NCBI GenBank assembly: GCA_020628915.1
Contig: JAHDEI010000002.1
Coordinates: 7,153-71,152, forward strand
Length of the DNA: 64,000 nucleotides
Source: Minisyncoccota bacterium
Lineage (GTDB): Bacteria; Patescibacteriota; Minisyncoccia; Phycocordibacterales; GCA-2747955
Direction: 5' to 3'
Part shown: piece by piece, positions 5,307 through 64,000 of the stretch
Layout: each line of letters begins with the position of its first letter
How positions within the stretch are numbered: the first letter of the stretch is position 1
Notes under the pieces: generated by a model
What the model was told of the DNA's origin: nothing
The model's database searches: none
The model's input: only the letters and a program-made list of their open reading frames with translations
Translations under genes and position numbers: made by a program

Positions 5307-5594
5307 TTATTCTGGGATGCAAACCATTGGTTCATCCGGATCACTCGTCTCTGAGTCAGAAGCGTAACGATCTTTGAAATACTGAATAATATCTGCGGAC
5401 TCATACATCTGCACCCCCGCTTCGGTATCAACCAAAAATGGGATCTGTCTCTTTCCGCCTGTCTCTAACAGTTCGTCCATCCACTCTTCACGCTCGTAAA
5501 CGTCACGTTCATCATAAGAAATATTTGTGGTCTGAAGATAGTCTTTTACTCGATTACAAAATGGACAAGAGCTTTTGGTATATAAAATTAGCAT
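5307..5594 (-). CDS. glutaredoxin (CPFC active site)
   Basis: 'MLILYTKSSCPFCNRVKDYL' thioredoxin-fold CxxC motif; 95 aa. Confidence 0.8.
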   Translation of the reverse strand: MLILYTKSSCPFCNRVKDYLQTTNISYDERDVYEREEWMDELLETGGKRQIPFLVDTEAGVQMYESADIIQYFKDRYASDSETSDPDEPMVCIPE

Positions 5595-5711
5595 GTAGAT
5601 TTAATTTATTTCTAATACTTTAATTATACACTCCCTGTCAAATATTTGTTCAAAAAAAATTGATTTAGCTATGGATTTATTTATAATCTAGAAAGAATGA
5701 AAGGAGAAAAT

Positions 5712-6320
5712 ATGACTTCAGTAATTGCAGTTGATTTTGACGACGTCGTGTGTGACTTTAATTGGAAATACATCGATCACCACAACGAAACATACGGTGA
5801 TCCACGTATGACCCGTGAAAAAGCACATACCTTTGATATGGCAGCGCTCTATGGAATTACTCCGGATGAGGTTGTGAAACGTGTCAGAAATTTTTGCACA
5901 AACCACCACGGTGAAATCAAATTACACAGAGGAGCCGATCGAGGCCTCCATGAGTTATCACGAAAACATGAGTTACACATTGTGACCAGTCGTTGCGAGT
6001 CTTTTCGAGAAACCACAATGGACTGGATGGAGGAAAAAGGAGTCCTAGGGTACTTTAGTGGATTGCACTTTACCAATGGATTCGGAACTCTCTTCCCCGA
6101 ACGCAAGCGGACAAAATTACAAGTTTGCGAGAAAATTCAGGCAATAGCATTAATTGAGGACTCTCCTGGCAATGCACATATTGTTGCTGATGGAGGCATT
6201 CCGGTAGTAGTCCCTGAATACGCCTGGAATACTGGCAAGCTCGACCATGACCGTATTCATGTCGTAAATGATTGGACCACTATTCCTGCGGTTATTGCAG
6301 AAATTGGTGCATTTGGATAA
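5712..6320 (+). CDS. HAD-superfamily 5'(3')-deoxyribonucleotidase-like hydrolase
   Basis: 'VIAVDFDDVVCDF' HAD motif I (DxDxV) typical of the NT5C family; start chosen at ATG 5712 because an AAAGGAG SD lies 5 nt upstream (ORF track starts at 5697). sigma70-like promoter TTGATT-16-TATAAT at ~5660-5690; terminator follows at 6325-6352. Confidence 0.7.
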   Translation: MTSVIAVDFDDVVCDFNWKYIDHHNETYGDPRMTREKAHTFDMAALYGITPDEVVKRVRNFCTNHHGEIKLHRGADRGLHELSRKHELHIVTSRCESFRETTMDWMEEKGVLGYFSGLHFTNGFGTLFPERKRTKLQVCEKIQAIALIEDSPGNAHIVADGGIPVVVPEYAWNTGKLDHDRIHVVNDWTTIPAVIAEIGAFG

Positions 6321-13545: not shown

Positions 13546-16500
13546 TTATATCTTCTCAATTACTGCTTTGAAGACATGCTCTCTCACCTTTTGTTCGTCG
13601 CTTTCCACCTGGTCGAATGAAAGCTCTTCAATTCCTGCAACCGATTCCAGTTCATCTCTGAAGGCCTCGATTGCATCCTGAACCTCATCTGGAGCATCCA
13701 CAACCAACGATGCACGATCTGATGGTTCCATGCCTGATTTCTTTCTCATTGATTGAATAGCACGAAGTATTTCCCTAAAAAGACCTTCTTGCTCAAGTTC
13801 TGGAGTTAGCTCGGTATCAAGAACTGCAACCTCGTCTTGATTTGAATTAAATAGTACTGATTTGATATTCAACTCGTCTGCAATGATGTTTGTATACACT
13901 GGATCAAGCTCTGCTGACTGTAGCGATACAGACGCAAGCGGCTGCTTCACCTTTATTCCGGCGCTCGCACGTGCCTCCAAACCAGCAGAAACAAGATCCC
14001 GAACTGACTGCATTGTTTCGATCACTGCGTTGTTTTCGGATAACTTAATCTCAGGCCAATCCACCAAATGGACAGATTCTCTGTCTCCTTTTCCTCGCAT
14101 TTGTTGCCAAACATGTTCTGCCAAAAACGGCATGAATGGTGCAATGACTTTTGAAAAATTAATAAGGATGTATCGTGTTGTTGCCAGTGCATACTTTTTA
14201 TCTTCATCGTCAGTTCCTTTAAACCTATCTCTGGAGCGTCTGATATACCACGTTGATACATCATCAACAAAATCCATGAAACATCCACATGCCATATCTA
14301 GTTCGTAGGTATCAAGTTTTTCTGTTGTTTGTTTTTGAACCTCCCTAAATCTCTCGAGAATCCACAAATCAAGAGGATTGGATGCCTCTAGTGCCATATC
14401 ACGTGTGTGTGCGATAGTTTCGTTGTAAAGTTTGTAAAACGAGACGACATTTTTTAATCTGATAACAACCTTTTTATTGATGTCGTCAATTTGTTTTTCT
14501 ACCAAATTAACACTTTCACCTTTAATCAACGGTGACGAAAGCAGGAAGTAGCGCAATGCATCAGCCCCGTGTGTATCCATTACCTGTGATATTGGCGGGT
14601 AATTCTTGAGCTTCTTGGACATCTTTTTTCCATCTTCTGCCATAACCATTCCATGAACAATTACATTCTTGAACGGAGATTTATCAAAGAGACTTGTTCC
14701 AAGAACTAGTAATGAATTAAACCAGCCACGTGTTTGATCTGCCCCTTCACAAATAAAGTCGGCTGGATATTGGAACCCATCTTGATCAAATGGGTAGTGT
14801 TTTGATGCATATGGCATTGATCCTGATTCGTACCAACAGTCAAATACTTCGCCAATAATTTTGTATTCTTCTCCTTTGTCATTAAACCAGGTGATCCCGT
14901 CAATATGTGGCTTGTGAAAATCTAATTCGTACTCTTTGTTGTGTGGGAATCTCGTAAAATCTAAAAACCGCGGCTTTGCGTTATGAACTGTCCCCCAGTG
15001 AGTCCGCAGATCAATTGTCTGATCATGAGTGAGACCATTTGCTCCAGCAAACGATGTCCAGTACGGCGTAAAGTGACTAACTACTACGATGTTTTTTCCT
15101 TCATATTTTGAATCAATGTCATAAAAGAAATCCATCATCCGATGCTTCACCTGCATGATTGACTCTCCTCCTCCAGGCAGCTCTTTGGTCAGATCTTCGT
15201 ATGGTGTGTCCACACCCACATAGTTTAAATATTCATCTCTCGTTTTACCCTCAAGATCGCCAAAAACGATTTCACGAATTCGTTCATCAAAAATAATATC
15301 TTCTTTGTTCACGCCCACTCCCTTTGCAATTATCTCTGCAGTTTGTGTTGTGCGTGTAAATGGCGACGCAATGATGAGGTCTACATCCTCTCCATTGTCT
15401 GCATGAGCAGAACTAATAAGTTCTTTGATCTCGGGAACAGCACCTTCGACTTGTTTCATACCTTCTTTTGAAAGCTTGTCTAAATCACCTCCGGCAACAC
15501 CTGAAATCATTTTTTTAATATTTGATTCTGACTCACCATGTCTAATCAGAATAATGTTATTTGTGGATCGAGTTTTGTTTTTTAATTCAGCAAGTGATCC
15601 AATCACCTCGTGTTCTCCAGTGGTTTGATTTTCCCAAACAGGGATTGGTGCACCCCAAAAACGAGAACGTGAAATTGCCCAATCAACTTTTCCTGAGATC
15701 CAATTATGAAAACGCTTATGCCCCAAATGGTCAGGGACCCAATGCACTTTTGAATTAAGCTCAACCATACGATCAACCAGTGCGTCCGTCTTTTGAACAA
15801 ACCATGAGTCAGTAGCGTAGTTCAGCAAGGGTGTATCACATCTCCAGCAGTGTGGATAGCTGTGCTCGATCTTTTCTTTTGAGAAGAGTTTTCCGTTGTG
15901 TGCCAAATACTTAACGATTTCGATGTCAGTTGCCATGTGGTCCCCTTTTGTTTTCACCTCCATGCCAGCGAAATCAGTTACAGCGTCCACGAATTCTCCT
16001 GCTTTATTTACGTGATGAATTAACGGCAAGTTCATTTGTTTTGCTAATGCAAAGTCTTCGGCACCAAATGCTGGTGCTTCATGGGCAATACCCGTCCCTG
16101 ACTCGTCATCAATAAAGTCTGCTTCATACACTTTCCATCCGTTCTCATGATTTTCAATATTTGTATTGCTAACAAAATAATCAAATGGAGGTACATATTC
16201 CAAACCAACAAGGCCTTTTACATCATCAAACTCTTGTACGATCTCATAGTCCTTGACGTCAGCATGATTCATCACGTCTTCCAGTCGTGCCTTCGCAAGA
16301 ATGTAATTCTCGGTGACACCTTCTTTCGTTGCTCGTACTTTGACGTACTTTACCTCGGGCCCAACGGCGATTGCCACGTTACCGGGCAAGGTCCATGGTG
16401 TCGTCGTCCACGCTAAAATAAACGTTCCTGGTTCGTTTTTGAGTTCAAATTTCGCTGTAACTGAAATATCTTTTATGTCTGCATATCCATCAGCCACCTC

Positions 16501-17100
16501 GTTGTTTGAAAGCGTTGTTTCACATCGTGGACACAAATGCATAGCTTTGAATCCTTTGTAAACAAGACCCTTGTCATACAGTTCTTTAAAAGACCACCAG
16601 ATAGATTCTGTATATGTCGCATCCATCGTCTTGTAGTGGTTTTTCATGTCCACCCATCGCCCCGTTCGGGGGATTATCTGTTCCCAATCTTCTTTGTATT
16701 CCAAAACCTTTCCTCGTGCCTCAGTATTAAACTGTTCAACACCATGTTCCATGATGTCCTTTCGTGAGTTGAGACCGAACTCTTTCTCAACTATGTTTTC
16801 AATAGGAAGACCGTGACAATCCCACCCCCAGTTACGCACCACTTTTTTACCACGCATTGTTTGATAACGTGGAATTACGTCCTTAATTGTCCCTGGCAAT
16901 AAGTGACCATAGTGAGGTTGTCCTGTAGCAAATGGTGGCCCATCATAAAAAACAAAAGGGTCTTCATCTTCGCGCTCGTCAATCGACTTTTTAAAAATTC
17001 CGTTCTTATTCCAAAAATCTAAAACCGCCTCTTCATCTTTGGCGGTCTGAGATACATTGTTTTTATTATTTTGTGTATGTATATCAGACATAGAAACCAT
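13546..17100 (-). CDS. ileS: isoleucyl-tRNA synthetase (type 2) with in-frame inserted histidine-phosphatase (PGAM/SixA-like) domain
   Basis: 'FYDGPPFATGQPHYGH' (HIGH-class), 'WVPDHLGHKRFHNWISGKVDWAISRSRFWGAPIPVW', 'KMSKKLKNYP' (KMSKS-class); 1184 aa. aa ~512-718 carry 'LIRHGESESN', 'ASPFTRTTQTAEII' and 'VVVSHFTP'. Confidence 0.93.
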   Translation of the reverse strand: MVSMSDIHTQNNKNNVSQTAKDEEAVLDFWNKNGIFKKSIDEREDEDPFVFYDGPPFATGQPHYGHLLPGTIKDVIPRYQTMRGKKVVRNWGWDCHGLPIENIVEKEFGLNSRKDIMEHGVEQFNTEARGKVLEYKEDWEQIIPRTGRWVDMKNHYKTMDATYTESIWWSFKELYDKGLVYKGFKAMHLCPRCETTLSNNEVADGYADIKDISVTAKFELKNEPGTFILAWTTTPWTLPGNVAIAVGPEVKYVKVRATKEGVTENYILAKARLEDVMNHADVKDYEIVQEFDDVKGLVGLEYVPPFDYFVSNTNIENHENGWKVYEADFIDDESGTGIAHEAPAFGAEDFALAKQMNLPLIHHVNKAGEFVDAVTDFAGMEVKTKGDHMATDIEIVKYLAHNGKLFSKEKIEHSYPHCWRCDTPLLNYATDSWFVQKTDALVDRMVELNSKVHWVPDHLGHKRFHNWISGKVDWAISRSRFWGAPIPVWENQTTGEHEVIGSLAELKNKTRSTNNIILIRHGESESNIKKMISGVAGGDLDKLSKEGMKQVEGAVPEIKELISSAHADNGEDVDLIIASPFTRTTQTAEIIAKGVGVNKEDIIFDERIREIVFGDLEGKTRDEYLNYVGVDTPYEDLTKELPGGGESIMQVKHRMMDFFYDIDSKYEGKNIVVVSHFTPYWTSFAGANGLTHDQTIDLRTHWGTVHNAKPRFLDFTRFPHNKEYELDFHKPHIDGITWFNDKGEEYKIIGEVFDCWYESGSMPYASKHYPFDQDGFQYPADFICEGADQTRGWFNSLLVLGTSLFDKSPFKNVIVHGMVMAEDGKKMSKKLKNYPPISQVMDTHGADALRYFLLSSPLIKGESVNLVEKQIDDINKKVVIRLKNVVSFYKLYNETIAHTRDMALEASNPLDLWILERFREVQKQTTEKLDTYELDMACGCFMDFVDDVSTWYIRRSRDRFKGTDDEDKKYALATTRYILINFSKVIAPFMPFLAEHVWQQMRGKGDRESVHLVDWPEIKLSENNAVIETMQSVRDLVSAGLEARASAGIKVKQPLASVSLQSAELDPVYTNIIADELNIKSVLFNSNQDEVAVLDTELTPELEQEGLFREILRAIQSMRKKSGMEPSDRASLVVDAPDEVQDAIEAFRDELESVAGIEELSFDQVESDEQKVREHVFKAVIEKI

Positions 17101-21677: not shown

Positions 21678-21824
21678 ACTAAGTTACTACTACTTATTAA
21701 ACGTATTATCGATTCTAGCACACGGAAGACCTAAGAAACTAGATTAAATAAATACCCGTAGATCATTTATAAAACTTGACATATTTATATTTATAATATG
21801 TATTAGGTAACGTGGAGAAACAAG

Positions 21825-22016
21825 ATGTTCAATATATTCAAAGCGGTCGTAGGTTGTTCACTCCTCTGTGTGGGCATTATTTTTTTAATGGTAATCGTTA
21901 CAGAGTTAATTGCCGGCAGAATCGCTGATTTAGACCGACTCGGCTTTATCATGACACAGAACACTTTGATAATAACCGGAATCGGTGTAGTCCTGGTAGA
22001 CCGCATTAAATCTTAA
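21825..22016 (+). CDS. small membrane protein
   Basis: 63 aa, two hydrophobic helices; SD GGAGAAA upstream. Confidence 0.45.
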   Translation: MFNIFKAVVGCSLLCVGIIFLMVIVTELIAGRIADLDRLGFIMTQNTLIITGIGVVLVDRIKS

Positions 22017-22123
22017 ACCCCTAACGGAAAACCCGGAGGGGTTTTCTAATCCTTGTAAAGAAAATTTGACTAAAATAGAACTCTAATTTATAGTAGAAAA
22101 AGATCAAAAAGTGAGGAGTATCT

Positions 22124-22414
22124 ATGTTCACAAAAAAGCATATTTTGTACGGAATCATAATTGCGACGTGTGTCGTACTTCTATCTTCCTGTGCTGACCC
22201 AAATTCTCTCGAAGGAGTCCCAAATTCCGACGGCGATGTTGCTGGGTTTTGGCATGGACTATTCAATGGATTAACGCTCCCTTTCGCATTCATTGGATCA
22301 TTATTTTCGGATAATATTTCGATTTACGAAGTGCACAATAATGGTAAATTTTACCACCTGGGATTTGTGCTTGGTATTATTGCCTATGCCGCAGCTGTAT
22401 TTGCCGATGACTAA
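22124..22414 (+). CDS. small lipoprotein
   Basis: Lipobox 'VVLLSSC'; SD GAGGAG; terminator 22424-22446 (agacctc-tctc-gaggtct + T6). Confidence 0.6.
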   Translation: MFTKKHILYGIIIATCVVLLSSCADPNSLEGVPNSDGDVAGFWHGLFNGLTLPFAFIGSLFSDNISIYEVHNNGKFYHLGFVLGIIAYAAAVFADD

Positions 22415-22444
22415 ATCAGTAAAAGACCTCTCTCGAGGTCTTTT

Positions 22445-23761
22445 TTAGTTCTTATTTTTTTCTACCAATATCAAAAAGTTTTTGAAGAGTGACACAACGG
22501 TTAGAGGACCAATTCCTCCTGGCGAACGACTAAACAAACGTGCCTTCTCGCTGCAACCCCAATCTATGTCCCCTCTCAATGATCCAGACGAGCCAGATGT
22601 TCCTCCATCAAAGAGAATCGATCCTTCTTTAATCATCTCTGGTGTCACCAGATCTGAGACACCCGCACCTGAGACAATAATGTCTGCCGCCAAAGCCTGA
22701 TCAGTAAATTCTGTGTCTTCTTTGTCCACCGAATCAACGTTCGCACCCTTATGTTCAAAATATGTAATCGATGGACCGCCAACCAATTTCCCTCTACCGA
22801 TAACAAGAATATTTTTACCTGCGGGATTAAGATTGTAATGATCGATAATCTCATCAATGGCAGATACCACCGGAGGCAATACGGTCATATCCCCTCCAAT
22901 AAATGTGGCCATCGTTTGCTGGTTAAGGAGATCGGGATCTTTTATTGGTGGAATTAAGTTGCAAATTTTGTCTCGATCAATATGGTTGGGCAGCGGTAAT
23001 TGAATCACAACGCCATCTAAACTATCCAAGTTGTCTTTTATATGCTGCTCTAGCTCATTCTCGGTCACTGACATTTCGAATAAAAACTCTTTAAAATCCA
23101 CACCAATGCGTCCGGCCAGCTCTCTTTTTTTCTTAACATACATTCGTGTTGCAGCATCCTGTCCCACCACATAAATTCCCAATGTTGGTTTTTCATCCAA
23201 ATTTTCTACCTGCTCAATCAGTCGGTCTTCTAGTGCGACTGCCAACTCTTTTCCACTGACAACTACCCTTTTTTCATAAATCGAAAAATTAATATTGTAT
23301 TCGTTCTTTTCATCAGCTGGCCTGTAAGTTCGTGATGTTCGAACCCAGTCAGATATCAGATTGCCTGGAAATAAAATGTCACCCTCCACCTCAGCATCAA
23401 TATGTGTCACATACGCACGATCAACCAAGTCGTTCTCGAGTGCGTATTTATAAATGCCCGATCCTCCAAAAATAAATACTTCTCCAGTTTCTTCTTTTTG
23501 TGCAACCTCGATCCCCTCTTCTACAGAACCTACGACGACGCTCCCGAAGGGAGCGTTGTATCCAGAATCTCTTGTCACAATGATATTCAATCGCCCTGGC
23601 AGTGGCTTTCCAATTGATTCAAACGTTTTGCGCCCCATAACCAATGGATGTCCCATTGTAGTTTTCTTGAGATATGCAAAATCCGCTGGCAGATGCCATG
23701 GAATTTCTGAGCCATTTCCAATGACCCAATTTTTATCACATCCTACAATTAACGAAATCAT
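22445..23761 (-). CDS. bifunctional fusion: dihydrofolate reductase (N-terminal) + methylene-THF dehydrogenase/methenyl-THF cyclohydrolase FolD (C-terminal)
   Basis: N-terminal ~165 aa 'MISLIVGCDKNWVIGNGSEIPWHLPADFAYLKKTTMGHPLVMGRKTFESIGKPLPGR' = DHFR. C-terminal part has 'VIQLPLP', 'GRGKLVGGP' and 'GGIGPLTV' = FolD. Confidence 0.85.
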   Translation of the reverse strand: MISLIVGCDKNWVIGNGSEIPWHLPADFAYLKKTTMGHPLVMGRKTFESIGKPLPGRLNIIVTRDSGYNAPFGSVVVGSVEEGIEVAQKEETGEVFIFGGSGIYKYALENDLVDRAYVTHIDAEVEGDILFPGNLISDWVRTSRTYRPADEKNEYNINFSIYEKRVVVSGKELAVALEDRLIEQVENLDEKPTLGIYVVGQDAATRMYVKKKRELAGRIGVDFKEFLFEMSVTENELEQHIKDNLDSLDGVVIQLPLPNHIDRDKICNLIPPIKDPDLLNQQTMATFIGGDMTVLPPVVSAIDEIIDHYNLNPAGKNILVIGRGKLVGGPSITYFEHKGANVDSVDKEDTEFTDQALAADIIVSGAGVSDLVTPEMIKEGSILFDGGTSGSSGSLRGDIDWGCSEKARLFSRSPGGIGPLTVVSLFKNFLILVEKNKN

Positions 23762-23763
23762 TC

Positions 23764-24783
23764 TTATTTCTTTTTAAAATCTTTTGCATCGAACCCGCCT
23801 ACATTAGCAATAGGTGCCCTAATTGTTCCATGTGGATCGTACCCTTTTAATTCAAAATCTTCGAATACAAAATCATCGATTTCTTTTTTATCCGGATTAA
23901 TCTTCATTTGTGGGAAGTCTTTTGCCTCTCGGGATAATTGCTCGTCTACTTGATCAAAATGATCTGAATAGACATGTGCGTCGCCAAAGAAATGTACGAA
24001 TTCACCTGGCTCTAAACCTGCACATTGCGCAACCATCTGTAGCAACAAAGCGTAACTAGCAATATTAAACGGAACACCCAGGAACACATCTGCACTTCTC
24101 TGGAATAATGCGAGATTCAGTCTGTCATTCACTACAGTAAATTGGTATGTCGTGTGACAAAATGGCGGAACCTCATTTTTATTTTTCTCAGATGCCATAT
24201 GGTAAATAAAATCAGGATTCCATGCTGAGACAACATACGACTTTCGGTATGGTTTTGCGCGCAGCCCATCAATCACATATTGCAACTGATCAATCTCACG
24301 ACCGTCTGACGCCGGCCACTTTCGCCACATTCGACCATAAATTGTCACGAGGTCTCCCCACTGTTTTACAAAATCAGAATCTGCGTCTTCTTCTTTTAGT
24401 TGTGCAATGAACTCTTTCTGAGTTGGAACCTCAATATCATTTTCAATACAATGCTTTCTATAACGTTTATGTGCCCATTCATCCCAAATATGAACATCAT
24501 TATCAACTAGGTACTTAATATTAGAATCACCTTTCAGAAACCACAGTAACTCAATAATAATCCCTCGAGTAAAGACCTTTTTGGTTGTCAGTAATGGGAA
24601 TCCATCTTTCAAATCAAATCTCATCATATGGCCAAACACAGATTTAATGTATGGAGCCTCTTTCCCCTCTGCCTCATATTGTGCCAGCACCTCAGGAGTA
24701 AAAAAGACTGGCTTTTTCCATCCCTCATCTTTAATCTTTGTGAGTAAATCTAAGTATTGTTGTTCTCCTTTATTCATATGCAT
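23764..24783 (-). CDS. thyA: thymidylate synthase
   Basis: 'RMWRKW', 'VPPFCHTTYQF' (active-site Cys), 'SADVFLGVPFNIASYALLLQMVA'; 339 aa with an insert after 'HIWDEW'. Confidence 0.92.
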   Translation of the reverse strand: MHMNKGEQQYLDLLTKIKDEGWKKPVFFTPEVLAQYEAEGKEAPYIKSVFGHMMRFDLKDGFPLLTTKKVFTRGIIIELLWFLKGDSNIKYLVDNDVHIWDEWAHKRYRKHCIENDIEVPTQKEFIAQLKEEDADSDFVKQWGDLVTIYGRMWRKWPASDGREIDQLQYVIDGLRAKPYRKSYVVSAWNPDFIYHMASEKNKNEVPPFCHTTYQFTVVNDRLNLALFQRSADVFLGVPFNIASYALLLQMVAQCAGLEPGEFVHFFGDAHVYSDHFDQVDEQLSREAKDFPQMKINPDKKEIDDFVFEDFELKGYDPHGTIRAPIANVGGFDAKDFKKK

Positions 24784-25209
24784 TTATTGTTTACCTGTTG
24801 AGCCAAAGCCCCCAGTGCCCCGCTCAGTTTCTGATAATTCTGTGACTTCTTCTAGTTCTGGATGGTGAATACGCTGTATCAGCATTTGTGCAACCTTGTC
24901 ACCCACCTCAAAAATGTATTCTTGATCCGAAGTATTAATCAGTCCCACCATCACCTCACCTCTATACCCTGAGTCTACTACACCACCAACTGTTTTAATA
25001 CCACCTTTGAATGCAAGTCCTGATTTCTCCCAAATCAACCCAACGTGTCCATCTGGAATTGCCATAGAAAGACCAGTTGGCGCGCCTTTTCTTTCGCCCG
25101 GTGCGATCACGATTCGTTCAGTAGTAAACAAATCCATCCCTGCATCAGCAGAGTGCGCAAATGATGGCATCTTTGCTCGATCATTAAGTTTTTTAATCTG
25201 CATCTTCAT
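24784..25209 (-). CDS. dut: dUTP diphosphatase
   Basis: 'AGMDLF', 'GLIWEKSGLAFKG', 'VDSGYRGEV', 'ERGTGGFGSTG'. Confidence 0.92.
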   Translation of the reverse strand: MKMQIKKLNDRAKMPSFAHSADAGMDLFTTERIVIAPGERKGAPTGLSMAIPDGHVGLIWEKSGLAFKGGIKTVGGVVDSGYRGEVMVGLINTSDQEYIFEVGDKVAQMLIQRIHHPELEEVTELSETERGTGGFGSTGKQ

Positions 25210-25211
25210 AT

Positions 25212-25826
25212 TTATGTACGTAAAAATTCTCCTAATGCTTGTAATGATTTTTCCTTTACCTCTTCGATGGTGCCGCTTGCATCAATAATTGCGTGAGGTA
25301 ATTTCTGGATATGCTCTTTATATCCATCACGAGCTCTTTCAAAAAAGCTTGCATCAAAGTGGTCAAATGAATTGATGTTGTCACTACGTTGCTCGAGTCG
25401 CTCTTTTCTAATTTCAACGGGAATATCGTAAAAGAGACAAAAATCTGGCTGCATCTCACCCAATACGGTATTGCTCAAATAATCTGCAAGGTGCTCCAGA
25501 TCGTGACGTTCACGTGCATGAATTTGATACGCATATGTTGTCAGCTCGTTTCTGTTTGAAACTACCGTCTTTCCCTCTGCTAACGCTGGAATAATAACTC
25601 TATTCATTAATTCTTTTCGCGCTGCGTAAAAAAGCAGAATCTCTGTGATTGGATCAAGCTCGTTTCCGGTAATAACATCGCGCAACACAACCCCAATTTG
25701 GGTCCCTCTTGGCTCTCGAGTATACACAGTATCTGCGGGCAAAATTTCCTTAAGAAACTCTTCTTGCGTGTCTTTTCCTGCGCCATCAACACCTTCGATA
25801 ACAATATATGTACCTTTTCTACTACT
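25212..25826 (-). CDS. tmk: thymidylate kinase
   Basis: P-loop 'IVIEGVDGAGKDTQ', 'REPRGT'; start set at MSSRKGTY (25826) because the terminator hairpin 25845-25866 occupies the longer ORF's 5' extension. Confidence 0.88.
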   Translation of the reverse strand, partial: SSRKGTYIVIEGVDGAGKDTQEEFLKEILPADTVYTREPRGTQIGVVLRDVITGNELDPITEILLFYAARKELMNRVIIPALAEGKTVVSNRNELTTYAYQIHARERHDLEHLADYLSNTVLGEMQPDFCLFYDIPVEIRKERLEQRSDNINSFDHFDASFFERARDGYKEHIQKLPHAIIDASGTIEEVKEKSLQALGEFLRT

Positions 25827-25844
25827 CATAGTTGTACAAGTATA

Positions 25845-25866
25845 GCAAAATAAAAACGCGACCTTT
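25845..25866 (-). terminator. intrinsic terminator (aacgcgacc-tttc-ggtcgcgtt)
   Basis: Downstream of minus-strand gene 25883..26296. Confidence 0.65.
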
Positions 25867-25882
25867 CGGTCGCGTTGCACAT

Positions 25883-41973: not shown

Positions 41974-42564
41974 TTATTCCATAATTCCGTCAAGATTCAC
42001 ATCGTACAAGATCTTTTCTTGAACGATGGTGTAATCAACGATTTCGTCATCGCTAAACCAGATAGCGATCTCTCGTTCGGCTTCATCGACATCCTCTGAA
42101 CAGTGGATGAGATTCCGTACTGCCCTATCGTCTTTTGCAGAATATGCGTATGAATCAATAGTAAAGTCACCTCGAATTGTGCCGATGTCAGCTGTTGCTG
42201 GTTCAGTTGTTCCTACCAGTGAAGTAACAACTGCTGTAGCCATGTGGCCTTCGATAACCATCATCACTACTGGACCTGCAGTAATATACTTTGCAATCCC
42301 TCCGATGATATCTCGACCGTACTCGATTGCCTCTTTTTCAATCGGCAGCCCTGCTGACTGTCGATCACGAACAACCCCCTCTCCTTTTCTTTGGAACCAT
42401 TCGTCATCTTTGTTGTAATGTGCAAACACTTGGTCTTCCTTTGCAACAGCAAGTTTCATTCCTGTTACCTTCAGACCCTTTCGCTCAAACCGAGTGATAA
42501 TTTGACCAACCAGTGATCGTTGTACCGCGTCAGGTTTTAAAATAATTAAACTTCTTTCTATCAT
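41974..42564 (-). CDS. ndk: nucleoside diphosphate kinase
   Basis: 'IILKPDAVQRSLVGQIITRFE', 'NLIHCSED' (NxxHxSD active-site His); 196 aa with C-terminal extension; terminator 41949-41970. Confidence 0.9.
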   Translation of the reverse strand: MIERSLIILKPDAVQRSLVGQIITRFERKGLKVTGMKLAVAKEDQVFAHYNKDDEWFQRKGEGVVRDRQSAGLPIEKEAIEYGRDIIGGIAKYITAGPVVMMVIEGHMATAVVTSLVGTTEPATADIGTIRGDFTIDSYAYSAKDDRAVRNLIHCSEDVDEAEREIAIWFSDDEIVDYTIVQEKILYDVNLDGIME

Positions 42565-56679: not shown

Positions 56680-57087
56680 GGGGATGACGGGCTTTGACAA
56701 TTTAGTTTCGAACTTTGTGCAATGCGACTTTTCCAGGTTTCGTAAAAAACTGGGATACCTTTACGTGCAAACGCTAAAGACAACGCGGTGGCTAGCCCAT
56801 ACGCACCTGCATTTGCTTTTGCTTAAGAGTTGAGCCTTTTGGCTCCTCGATGTAGGCGGTTTTCGTGATAGGTGCTAAGACTACACGTTAGCTGTTATCT
56901 TGCTTAGCTAGTGAATATGTGGCTGCTTCATATTCATGAAATCACACGCAGCTGGTTTTTCTAGAGTTTTGATTAATTTATATCTAGGAAAATAAGATGA
57001 TTCCCTAGGGAATCAAAAATTACTCTATCATTGTAGAGTCAATTTCTCGGACTATCTTGGACGGGGGTTCAACTCCCCCCTTCTCCA
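56680..57087 (+). ncRNA. ssrA: tmRNA (SsrA)
   Basis: 5' 'GGGGAUGACGGGCUUUGAC...UUCGAAC', pseudoknot PK1 'CCAGGUUUCGUAAAAAACUGGG'. Tag reading frame GCA AAC GCU ... UAA at 56767-56826 (ANAKDNAVASPYAPAFAFA). 3' 'GGACGGGGGUUCAACUCCCCC-CUUCUCC-A' forms the T-arm and a 7-bp acceptor stem with G3.U wobble and discriminator A; CCA not fully encoded. Confidence 0.85.
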
Positions 57088-58636
57088 CATCAAGGGTGTC
57101 ACTGTCACCTAATCGCTCAAAAAGCCTTAAAATTACAGTCTTTTCAGGGGTTCGATAACCGTTTTCTTTGTCATATCTCAGATTCGCTTCAAAAAAGAAC
57201 GGAAACACCTCATGTTTTTGTTCGAGATTTCCTGTAACCCATAGCTGATAAGGGTTTCTCATCATTTCTAATACTTCATCTAGAGCGTTCCGATAAGGTT
57301 TTTCAAGATCTGGTTTTTTACTCTTCTTTTCCTCAATAAGAGCTAATTTTTGTGCATCCTCCTCCATCCGTAAAGACAATCTATCTTTTACTGCATCAGA
57401 AGTCTTTGGATCAATCAACATATCTTCAATACGCCTTAGACTCTCTTGAATGCTTTCTCCTTGCTTCTCAAGGCTTAAAATGCGTTTGTCTAGGTTCTTA
57501 AACTCATCTTTCCAGTATGTATCAAACATATACTTTATAAGCTCTTCGAACTCTTGTTTTGACTTCAGTGAGCACGTGAACTCTTCAAATCCCTTATGAA
57601 GGTCATCCCTCCTAATACTCTTGTTCTTAAATGGACAATCAGGAGTGTATTTGCACTCGTAGTAGTAATAATAATCCCCATGTCGACCTTTCGATTTATA
57701 CCCCGTTAACTTGCGTCCACAATGAGAACAATTCACCAAACCTCGTAAGGGAAAATCTGGATTAAGATCCATTCGTGAATAACGGGTATTTGACTCCTTG
57801 TTTAGTCGCTTTTGAATAGCCTCAAAAGTTTCCAAGCCAATAAGTGGTTCATGTTTTCCTTTTACCATCTTCACTTCCCATTTTGGATAATCAATATATC
57901 CTGCGTAAAACACATTAGTAAGCATCGCCTTGATGGTTTTCAAATATTTCTCAGACTTATGTCGAGGTAATTTCCCTTTTTGTGGGAAAAAATCTTTTGA
58001 CAACAGAAAATCTACCACATCCACCTGCTTTGCAAACCTTCGTGAAGCAAAACCTTCCAAAGCTTCCTTAATACTCTTTGCATCTTTGTTTGGGTGACAT
58101 AGCTTCCCATACTCTTCGGTTTTTATCATCTCGTATCCCTTTGGAGCATGAAATGACCACAAACCTCTCTCTAAACGTGCTTTTTGTTTCTGAACCACCT
58201 GTCTTTTATTTTGCTTTCGCTCTAACTCACCTTGAGCAGCAATTATAATCTCAACGAATTCTCCTTCTGGAGTATCTTCAAAGTTAAAGTTGAGACACTG
58301 GACTTCTGTGCTCGTCGATCTAAATTGTTGCCGCAACTTTAAATGAGCAACAGTGTCTCTGGCAAGTCGCTTCAAGTCATCGAAAACGACAACGTAATCT
58401 TCATGAATATTTGTCTCAAGATACTCAATCAACTCTCTCATGGCGGGACGACCCATAAAATCACCGCCTCCAGTAAAACTATCTCTGAATACATCCACCA
58501 CTTGGTAATCCTTCCTTGTGCAGTAATCTCTACATCGTTTTTCTTGTGATTCTAATCCTGATCCTTCCGTTCTTTGCTTGTCAGTTGATACTCGGCAATA
58601 AATCAGTGCTCTTTTTTTTGTTTTAATATTACTCAT
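57020..58636 (-). CDS. large serine recombinase (resolvase domain + recombinase domain + zinc ribbon + coiled coil)
   Basis: 'ALIYCRVSTDKQ' catalytic-Ser motif, 'GYIDYPKWEV', Cys-rich 'CSHCGRKL...YYYYECKYTPDC'; C-terminal ~20 codons overlap the tmRNA 3' end on the opposite strand ('GGVEPP' is the T-arm read backwards). Confidence 0.85.
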   Translation of the reverse strand: MSNIKTKKRALIYCRVSTDKQRTEGSGLESQEKRCRDYCTRKDYQVVDVFRDSFTGGGDFMGRPAMRELIEYLETNIHEDYVVVFDDLKRLARDTVAHLKLRQQFRSTSTEVQCLNFNFEDTPEGEFVEIIIAAQGELERKQNKRQVVQKQKARLERGLWSFHAPKGYEMIKTEEYGKLCHPNKDAKSIKEALEGFASRRFAKQVDVVDFLLSKDFFPQKGKLPRHKSEKYLKTIKAMLTNVFYAGYIDYPKWEVKMVKGKHEPLIGLETFEAIQKRLNKESNTRYSRMDLNPDFPLRGLVNCSHCGRKLTGYKSKGRHGDYYYYYECKYTPDCPFKNKSIRRDDLHKGFEEFTCSLKSKQEFEELIKYMFDTYWKDEFKNLDKRILSLEKQGESIQESLRRIEDMLIDPKTSDAVKDRLSLRMEEDAQKLALIEEKKSKKPDLEKPYRNALDEVLEMMRNPYQLWVTGNLEQKHEVFPFFFEANLRYDKENGYRTPEKTVILRLFERLGDSDTLDVEKGGVEPPSKIVREIDSTMIE

Positions 58637-63465: not shown

Positions 63466-64000
63466 CTACAGAAAAAAATATACTCCTATACCCACCAAAC
63501 AAATAATGACAACCATCCACGCAAATGATCTCAGTACATCTTTACGAGCAAGTAATGCAATATAACCAACTTTCACAAAGGTATTAATAACAATAGACAA
63601 CGTCACAGCCAACGTAGTAATTCCTTGAGAAATCTCCCCCACCTTATGAGCCTGTAACGCAGAAAGAATTGACGCGTCTACATCCACAAACGATGACAGC
63701 AAAGCAATAGCGAGCACTCCATAGTCTCCAAAATAATCTTTTGCGAATGAGACTGCCAGCAAAACAACCACAAACAATGCCCCGAACTTTAATGCAGGCA
63801 TGATTTCAAAAGGGCTACTGATTTCTGGATCAAGTTCAACAATATTAGACATGTCCCGACCCTTCCACATCGACCACCCAACAAGTAATACCGTCACGGT
63901 AAGCATAGAAACAGGAACAAAAATAACTGATTTTACTTCGGCTCCGGCAACAACCCCAATTTCAAAAATGACTCTTAGTAGCATTGTTCCAATTGCAATA
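63466..64000 (-). CDS. integral membrane protein (MgtC/DUF4010-like?), N-terminus beyond window end
   Basis: Reading frame stays open to the window edge upstream of the listed Met; multiple TM helices. Confidence 0.5.
   Translation of the reverse strand, partial: IAIGTMLLRVIFEIGVVAGAEVKSVIFVPVSMLTVTVLLVGWSMWKGRDMSNIVELDPEISSPFEIMPALKFGALFVVVLLAVSFAKDYFGDYGVLAIALLSSFVDVDASILSALQAHKVGEISQGITTLAVTLSIVINTFVKVGYIALLARKDVLRSFAWMVVIICLVGIGVYFFL

Follow-up and report, generated by a model that had tools for sequence, protein, structure and literature searches.

A conserved DHFR-FolD fusion at the end of a thymidylate-synthesis operon in a Minisyncoccota bacterium

The 64,000-nucleotide stretch of contig JAHDEI010000002.1 from a Minisyncoccota bacterium (the whole stretch is referred to below as the window) carries on its minus strand four closely packed genes for the synthesis of thymidylate (dTMP): tmk, dut, thyA and a 438-residue open reading frame (ORF) in which dihydrofolate reductase (DHFR, FolA) is joined directly to FolD, the methylene-tetrahydrofolate dehydrogenase/methenyl-tetrahydrofolate cyclohydrolase. 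We consider it very probable that these genes form a dTMP-synthesis operon whose last gene encodes a genuine and conserved enzyme with three activities. The fusion is a new domain architecture of well-known enzymes, which is present in public databases but unnamed or under-annotated there; no description of it was found in the full-text literature searched, and it is rare but not unique. The features of the locus are as follows (THF, tetrahydrofolate).

25855..25876, minus strand: terminator-like hairpin (9-bp stem, 6 GC pairs, T-run), which ends the upstream membrane-protein gene and marks the 5' boundary of the operon
25212..25829, minus strand: tmk, dTMP kinase, the likely gene within the mechanical ORF 25212-25880; TIGR00041 134.5 bits (cut-off 83.25), Pfam Thymidylate_kin 134.7 bits
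24784..25209, minus strand: dut, dUTP diphosphatase, 141 aa; TIGR00576 147.6 bits (cut-off 102.55), Pfam dUTPase
23764..24783, minus strand: thyA, folate-dependent thymidylate synthase, long form, 339 aa; TIGR03284 356 bits (cut-off 108.35), NF002496 341.8 bits (cut-off 325)
22445..23761, minus strand: folA::folD, single 438-aa ORF, DHFR plus methylene-THF dehydrogenase/methenyl-THF cyclohydrolase
23267..23761, minus strand: DHFR half, aa 1-165; Pfam DHFR_1
23258..23275, minus strand: domain junction, aa 163-168, E-K-R-V-V-V
22931..23257, minus strand: FolD catalytic domain, aa 169-277; Pfam THF_DHG_CYH
22457..22909, minus strand: FolD NAD(P)-binding domain, aa 285-435; Pfam THF_DHG_CYH_C
22421..22444, no strand assigned: GC-rich hairpin (10-bp stem), directly 3' of the fusion stop codon
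20412..21677, minus strand: glyA, serine hydroxymethyltransferase (SHMT), 421 aa; NF000586 554.7 bits (cut-off 335)

An initial annotation of this DNA had described four minus-strand genes separated by 0–3 nt and had read the 438-aa ORF as an N-terminal DHFR followed by a C-terminal FolD. Both descriptions hold. The spacers between tmk, dut, thyA and the fusion, read from the sequence, are 2, 0 and 2 nt, and the motifs quoted in that annotation are all present in the ORF. Three Pfam domains match well above their cut-offs: DHFR_1 covers residues 1-164 and the whole of its profile (positions 1-159 of 159) at 173.1 bits against a cut-off of 25; THF_DHG_CYH (PF00763) covers residues 169-277 at 79.3 bits (cut-off 32.8); and THF_DHG_CYH_C (PF02882) covers residues 285-435 at 101.6 bits (cut-off 27). 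The C-terminal half therefore matches FolD profiles above threshold, and it also keeps the catalytic residues described below. DHFR and thymidylate synthase do not share a chain here: ThyA has its own ORF, and 2 nt lie between its end and the start of the fusion.

The linker between the two enzymes has zero length. In an alignment with Escherichia coli FolA, the DHFR half stops at the position of the last FolA residue and FolD begins at the next. Across the fused clade this zero-linker junction is identical, the last DHFR strand (...F[AS][VI]YEK) running directly into the FolD N-terminus (xV[VI]VxGK). We note that an internal translation start at the junction can be rejected, since codons 150-172 of the window gene contain no ATG, GTG or TTG.

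A word-indexed search of NCBI, ENA, JGI and Logan assemblies found the same fusion in relatives. At least 13 clusters (the window's own included) contain it in full, with 428-439 aa, 57-71% identity and all three Pfam domains, and one further cluster is truncated at 323 aa. These results bear on the most obvious alternative, namely that a frameshift or the loss of a stop codon merged adjacent folA and folD genes, and did so only in this metagenome-assembled genome (MAG). All that speaks for such an artefact is how common errors of this kind generally are in metagenome assemblies. Against it, the same ORF recurs in clusters from different projects and assemblers, the junction is kept at residue level, and the fusion genes of four relatives translate uninterrupted. 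Within the window gene the frame is continuous, neither alternative frame stays open for more than 79 codons, and there is no composition break between the two halves (GC content 0.42 and 0.43; GC at third codon positions, 0.36 and 0.38). The chance that the fusion is an artefact is therefore vanishingly small: the fusion is genuine, and a sequencing or assembly artefact is excluded because the frame is continuous, no long alternative-frame ORF exists, the composition is even and the zero-linker junction is kept in relatives. The frameshift considered in the initial annotation is thereby removed as an explanation.

The DHFR half is approximately 50% identical to the Bacillus anthracis DHFR of structure 3fl8. 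Residues W22, D27, R44, T46, R57, G95, G96, Y100 and T113 (E. coli numbering) are kept both in the window protein and across the fused clade. The score of this half against the NCBIfam type 3 DHFR equivalog model NF008037 is 137.2 bits, below the cut-off of 168. Judged on its residues and scores, the DHFR half is a member of the FolA family, though not an NF008037 equivalog.

In the FolD half, catalytic Y208 and K212 (the YxxxK motif), Q254 and D277 correspond to Y52, K56, Q100 and D125 of human MTHFD1, whose reference numbering was validated against literature positions. All four are invariant in the fused clade, as is the GGxGP motif; the glutamine sits in QLPLP and the aspartate in KDxD. 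The NAD(P)-binding domain carries motifs of a Patescibacteria type (GRGKLVGGP, VDKED, GGTSGSSG and PGGIGPLT). Those relatives of the FolD half that carry a name belong to Parcubacteria or Minisyncoccota. Rates of nonsynonymous substitution (dN) in the fused clade are similar in the two halves, at 0.27-0.34 and 0.27-0.38; synonymous substitution (dS) is saturated, so that dN/dS is uninformative for the clade.

AlphaFold2 was used to predict the structure of the fusion protein from an alignment of 62 sequences. The model has a mean predicted local distance difference test score (pLDDT) of 95.7 and a predicted TM-score (pTM) of 0.90; no segment falls below a pLDDT of 50, and residues 160-170 at the junction are at about 96. 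The only softer region is residues 11-30, about where the flexible Met20 loop of DHFR lies. The fusion is thus predicted to be a compact and rigid two-enzyme body with an ordered junction. The FolD part of the model superposes on solved FolD and MTHFD2 structures with target TM-scores of 0.86-0.93 and root-mean-square deviations of 1.5-2.9 Å. No chain in the PDB covers both halves, the best query TM-score being 0.61 with at most 295 aligned columns.

The functions of the two halves can be separated by comparison with a sister lineage that uses a different thymidylate synthase. Protein P0015 is a FolD-only protein of 276 aa and shares 89% identity with the FolD half of the fused protein P0008; it nests within the fused clade, because it is closer to P0008 than most fused members are. 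At the locus of P0008 (L091) the gene order is thyA, fusion, an ORF of 130 aa, an ORF of 57 aa and a PGAP1-like gene. The loci of P0015 (L084 and L085) have thyX on the opposite strand, the FolD-only gene, an ORF of 121 aa, an ORF of 56 aa, a PGAP1-like gene, an ORF of 207 aa, glyA and argS. The downstream neighbours of the P0008 locus are thus kept at the P0015 locus, and no remnant of thyA or DHFR is detectable upstream of the P0015 FolD. The divergent gene adjoining it encodes a flavin-dependent thymidylate synthase (Thy1/ThyX, 60.1 bits against a cut-off of 24.8). This sister-genome ThyX (L084 1-1830, L085 2-2071) is long, with at least 404 aa, of which the Thy1 domain occupies only residues 53-234, and it has an RHR motif at about residue 320.

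The complementarity of thyA plus folA with thyX was described by Myllykallio et al., and is discussed in PMC1971073 and PMC11974145, as is the release of THF rather than dihydrofolate (DHF) by ThyX. Since ThyX yields THF rather than DHF, genomes with thyX can do without folA, and the thyX-linked loss of thyA and of the DHFR half fits this established pattern. As in the thyA-folA unit of Myllykallio et al., the DHFR half accompanies ThyA and is lost with it when ThyX is present. The replacement differs here in that it cut the fused gene exactly at the domain boundary, leaving what would be a functional stand-alone FolD. The P0008/P0015 FolD pair, the only pair usable for this purpose, has a dN of 0.078 and a dS of 0.67, a ratio of approximately 0.12, which indicates that the retained stand-alone FolD is under purifying selection. 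As far as gene content and sequence can tell, the comparison shows the DHFR half to serve ThyA and the FolD half to have an independent and indispensable role, which is presumably the supply of 10-formyl-THF.

The rarity of the architecture was assessed using an exhaustive HMMER search of 1.84 billion representatives clustered at 50% identity; the census was taken from the best 150 matches and is a lower bound. The fused clade of Patescibacteria forms a single representative in this set (P0009). Among the best 150 matches, two others join DHFR and FolD: P0353, of 439 aa, and P0244, of 609 aa, in which the order is DHFR, 5-formyl-THF cyclo-ligase (MTHFS), FolD. The second-highest-scoring multi-domain match, P0243, is a GFP-DHFR-DHFR protein and was set aside as evidently a synthetic construct. 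A scan of genome contigs using DHFR-only peptide patterns returned ordinary folA genes of many phyla and no fused locus.

P0353 and P0017 represent a second lineage, which has a GC content of 29%. This lineage uses genetic code 4, as its thyA shows: the gene contains four in-frame TGA codons, and each of them stands where Trp is canonical. With P0017 as the query, DHFR-FolD fusions of 432-443 aa were recovered in at least 27 clusters, of which the named ones come from Mycoplasma sp., Mycoplasmoidaceae and Malacoplasma MAGs (L083 1686-3002; L090 578-1897; proteins P0388-P0413). Their NCBI product name is "dihydrofolate reductase" only. The Mollicutes proteins resemble the window protein in domain order, in size, in having essentially no linker and in lying directly downstream of thyA. 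Their overall identity to it is however only about 31%, and they represent an independent event: their FolD half is canonical (GRSNIVGKP, CHSKT, PCTP) and closest to ordinary FolDs, at 47-57% identity, while their DHFR half has Glu27 and a shorter C-terminus, unlike the protein described here. P0244 likewise carries DHFR and FolD on one chain within a folate gene island, but it has MTHFS in between, no adjacent thyA and different nearest relatives for both halves. At its loci (L088 5001-6830, L089 2629-4458), glyA, folC and the fusion make up an island, together with a formyltransferase gene in convergent orientation. The thyA-adjacent fusion of DHFR followed by FolD thus arose on at least two independent occasions, and once more with MTHFS between the two. 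The independent recurrence in Mollicutes argues for a selective advantage of the fusion. The initial annotation called such a fusion unusual, which is right in the sense of rare and does not extend to unique, given the Mollicutes lineage and the DHFR-MTHFS-FolD protein.

Metagenomic DHFRs are also found fused to thymidylate synthase (TS), dUTPase, NUDIX, dCMP deaminase, and Tmk plus SHMT (P0113), so DHFR seems to form Rosetta-stone fusions with other enzymes of dTMP metabolism unusually readily. Such proteins include, besides P0113, P0102, P0112, P0065, P0071, P0100, P0068 and P0103. No description of a DHFR-FolD fusion was found in full-text searches of the literature outside subscription journals. 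A study of folate metabolism in the candidate phyla radiation (PMC11974145) handles folA, glyA and folD as separate genes.

It is useful to compare the protein with better known folate fusions. The DHFR-TS of protozoa and plants also has DHFR N-terminal in a fusion with an enzyme of the thymidylate cycle, linking the production of DHF to its reduction. Its partner is however TS, whereas here the partner is FolD and ThyA is encoded by a separate upstream gene. The two reactions of DHFR-TS follow one another, and DHF is channelled between them; those of DHFR and FolD do not, and the fusion described here has no junction peptide. The channelling analogy with DHFR-TS, a fusion mentioned in the initial annotation, is not directly transferable, because SHMT acts between the two steps; for the same reason, channelling of a folate intermediate by the fusion is unlikely. 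The C-terminal 273 aa contain the complete two-domain dehydrogenase/cyclohydrolase (D/C) fold of the FolD/MTHFD family, with YxxxK, Q and D kept. The eukaryotic trifunctional C1-THF synthase MTHFD1 also has a D/C module fused to a further folate enzyme, but that partner is a C-terminal formyl-THF synthetase, whereas here it is an N-terminal DHFR. The D/C module of the window protein is also of a divergent Patescibacteria type (PPVV, GxGxLVG, DAGTS) that scores below the NCBIfam FolD equivalog cut-offs.

The operon would work as follows. Dut would convert dUTP to dUMP, ThyA would convert dUMP to dTMP, and Tmk would convert dTMP to dTDP. The DHFR half would reduce the DHF released by ThyA to THF using NADPH, and SHMT, encoded nearby, would reload THF to 5,10-methylene-THF. 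The FolD half would oxidize 5,10-methylene-THF to 5,10-methenyl-THF and hydrolyze this to 10-formyl-THF. The fusion may have originated when neighbouring folA and folD genes of a thyA-folA-folD-glyA operon lost the stop codon and the spacer that separated them. It may have been retained because, in a genome this reduced, it guarantees an equimolar and co-regulated supply of both NADP(H)-linked folate enzymes.

Several observations weigh against this reading of the operon and of its last gene. The best score of the FolD half against NCBIfam FolD equivalog models is approximately 158 bits, where the cut-offs are 333-507 (392 for the best model), and all 25 of the listed models are missed. Where canonical FolD has PCTP, GRSxxVG and DVGINR, this half has PPVV, GxGxLVG and DAGTSxxxG, respectively. 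Its cofactor preference is not readable from the sequence: the residues at positions 173 (K or R) and 197 (K) are basic, yet the one at 196 (D or E) is acidic. To our knowledge there is no enzymology for the fusion protein or for any FolD of the Patescibacteria type. The inter-domain signal behind the pTM of the model comes from only 14 fused sequences. Unfused folA-folD adjacency, as supposed in the proposed origin, was not found at the two nearest unfused Patescibacteria folD loci checked. Finally, the 64-kb window contains no second copy of DHFR or FolD and no ThyX, and extra folA or folD genes may lie elsewhere in the genome.

Taken at face value, the equivalog scores and the altered pterin loop (PPVV), GRS motif (GxG) and DVGINR loop could mean that one half is no longer canonical, for example that FolD has become monofunctional or NAD-dependent, acts on another pterin, or serves as a scaffold or regulator. 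We regard this as improbable. The catalytic Y, K (the equivalent of Lys56), Q and D, together with GGxGP, are invariant; the DHFR catalytic residues are all intact, and the two halves are under similar constraint. Moreover, the same divergent motifs occur in dozens of unfused Patescibacteria FolDs of approximately 270 aa, which are ordinary chromosomal genes in the two neighborhoods checked. The divergence of FolD marks a lineage-specific Patescibacteria type rather than decay.

A different proposal accepts both activities and concerns what the fusion is for. DHFR and FolD use the same cofactor pair in opposite directions, and both Patescibacteria and Mollicutes have minimal metabolism with few sources of NADPH. 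The FolD half might make NADPH by oxidizing methylene-THF, and the DHFR half might spend it on the same rigid protein. The effective reaction would be DHF + CH2-THF -> THF + CH+=THF with locally recycled NADP(H); in net terms, dUMP + 2 Ser would yield dTMP + 2 Gly + one formyl unit. Selection for such coupling would then be the reason for the independent fusions in Patescibacteria and Mollicutes. It would account for the joining of activities that are non-consecutive yet share NADP(H), for at least two independent fusions in reduced-genome bacteria plus one triple fusion, and for the zero linker and the rigid body predicted by the model with its pTM of 0.90. The basic positions 173 and 197 correspond to contacts of human MTHFD1 with the 2'-phosphate of NADP and are always basic in the fused clade, whereas 173 varies in unfused Patescibacteria FolDs, and the Mollicutes fusions retain canonical NADP-type GRS and CHS motifs. 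On the other hand, the acidic residue at 196, located at the end of β2, is what Rossmann folds that prefer NAD typically have, and the best sequence match of the FolD half among solved structures is the NAD-dependent human MTHFD2. In addition, NADPH diffuses fast and a kinetic advantage is unproven, and in the thyX sister lineage the FolD half seems to work alone. On balance we think redox coupling rather unlikely, though likelier than a loss of canonical function in one half. Our preferred description remains a dTMP-synthesis operon ending in a three-activity enzyme.

The boundaries of the operon deserve some comment. The GTG at 25880, from which the mechanical tmk ORF begins, falls within the terminator-like hairpin of the upstream gene (25876-25855). 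Since this hairpin lies within the GTG-extended N-terminus, and since orthologous Tmk proteins are 204-205 aa long, the true start is likely to be the ATG at 25829, giving a protein of 205 aa. At the other end, the hairpin at 22421-22444 is common to the fusion and to a convergent plus-strand ORF (22124-22414), and is probably the 3' end of the operon. The initial annotation placed glyA about 700 bp from the fusion; it is indeed near, the corrected distance being 767 nt. Because the hairpin and two small plus-strand ORFs intervene, glyA is probably a separate transcription unit in this genome and the operon is probably tmk-dut-thyA-folA::folD. The two ORFs in this gap (21678-22444) are at 21825-22016, encoding a hydrophobic protein of 63 aa, and at 22124-22414, encoding a 96-aa protein with a signal peptide and an LSSC lipobox-like motif. 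Neither has a Pfam match, and both are missing from relatives in which glyA directly follows the fusion.

In four of the five relatives, glyA does directly follow the fusion. The gene order in L081, L092 and L093 is (lepA)-nudix-x-tmk-(CYTH)-dut-thyA-fusion-glyA-argS-ileS, with a variant in L091. The earlier suggestion of a self-contained thymidylate module with SHMT is thus supported by the conserved synteny of glyA, but not as regards co-transcription, which probably does not extend to glyA in the present genome. Some relatives have a CYTH-domain gene inside the operon, and L091 also has a stand-alone His_Phos_1 gene and no called dut gene (L091 847-2135; L093 3121-3789). In L093, a short-chain dehydrogenase (adh_short) of 217 aa (5351-6004) separates thyA from the fusion and shares 4 nt with the start of the latter. 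Pteridine and dihydrofolate reductases of the short-chain dehydrogenase type exist (FolM, PTR1), and by analogy this gene may be folate-related.

The remainder of the window is cellular and bacterial, with genes for EF-Tu, ribosomal proteins L2, L3 and L4, IleRS, ArgRS, PheST, LepA, GyrA, RelA/SpoT, FtsH and transfer-messenger RNA (tmRNA), and with many small membrane proteins lacking a family assignment. None of the other folate-dependent enzyme genes looked for (fmt, purN, purH, fhs and metF) is present within the 64 kb. Two further genes of nucleotide metabolism are an NT5C-like 5'-deoxynucleotidase (5697-6320, plus strand) and a nucleoside diphosphate kinase (41974-42564, minus strand), which at 196 aa is long for its family and has its best-matching stretch at residues 88-175.

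The isoleucyl-tRNA synthetase (13546-17100, minus strand; 1184 aa) has a histidine-phosphatase domain (His_Phos_1, PGM-like) at residues 516-699, inside the class I catalytic domain. The insertion is present in all 120 of its 120 best homologues, at 47-80% identity; those that are named come from Patescibacteria, Pacebacteria/Paceibacterota, Campbellbacteria and Minisyncoccota and are 47-54% identical to the window protein. It appears to be a phylum-wide feature. Taken with the names of the FolD relatives, those of the IleRS homologues point to a host within the Patescibacteria (CPR), probably Paceibacteria-like.

The tmRNA gene (56680-57090, plus strand; tag AKDNAVASPYAPAFAFA) and the gene for a large serine recombinase of 538 aa (57020-58636, minus strand; phrog_95 integrase, 230 bits) overlap by their 3' ends, and beyond this point the GC content falls from about 0.41 to 0.36-0.38. 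The overlap and the drop in GC suggest an element integrated at the tmRNA gene and extending toward position 64000. Genes past the recombinase include an amino-acid ABC transporter and methyltransferases, and no clear phage genes were seen among them.

The interest of the DHFR-FolD fusion lies mainly in its convergent recurrence in two phyla with reduced genomes, in the dissection of the fusion by ThyX and in the redox-coupling hypothesis. Fusions in two phyla constitute a Rosetta-stone signal for a functional link between DHFR and FolD beyond their shared cofactor scaffold, and the natural replacement by thyX shows ThyA to be the sole reason for having DHFR, FolD being required in either case. 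There are consequences for annotation. The product name of the Mollicutes proteins hides the FolD half, so that metabolic reconstructions of those reduced genomes wrongly score folD as absent; reconstructions for Patescibacteria (PMC11974145) count folA and folD as separate genes. The fusion also offers a compact protein for testing the recycling of NADP(H) between two active sites, and may find use as a self-recycling DHFR for biocatalysis or, in Mollicutes, as a lineage-specific antifolate target. If redox coupling were true, dTMP synthesis would be independent of the scarce NADPH pool of the reduced cell.

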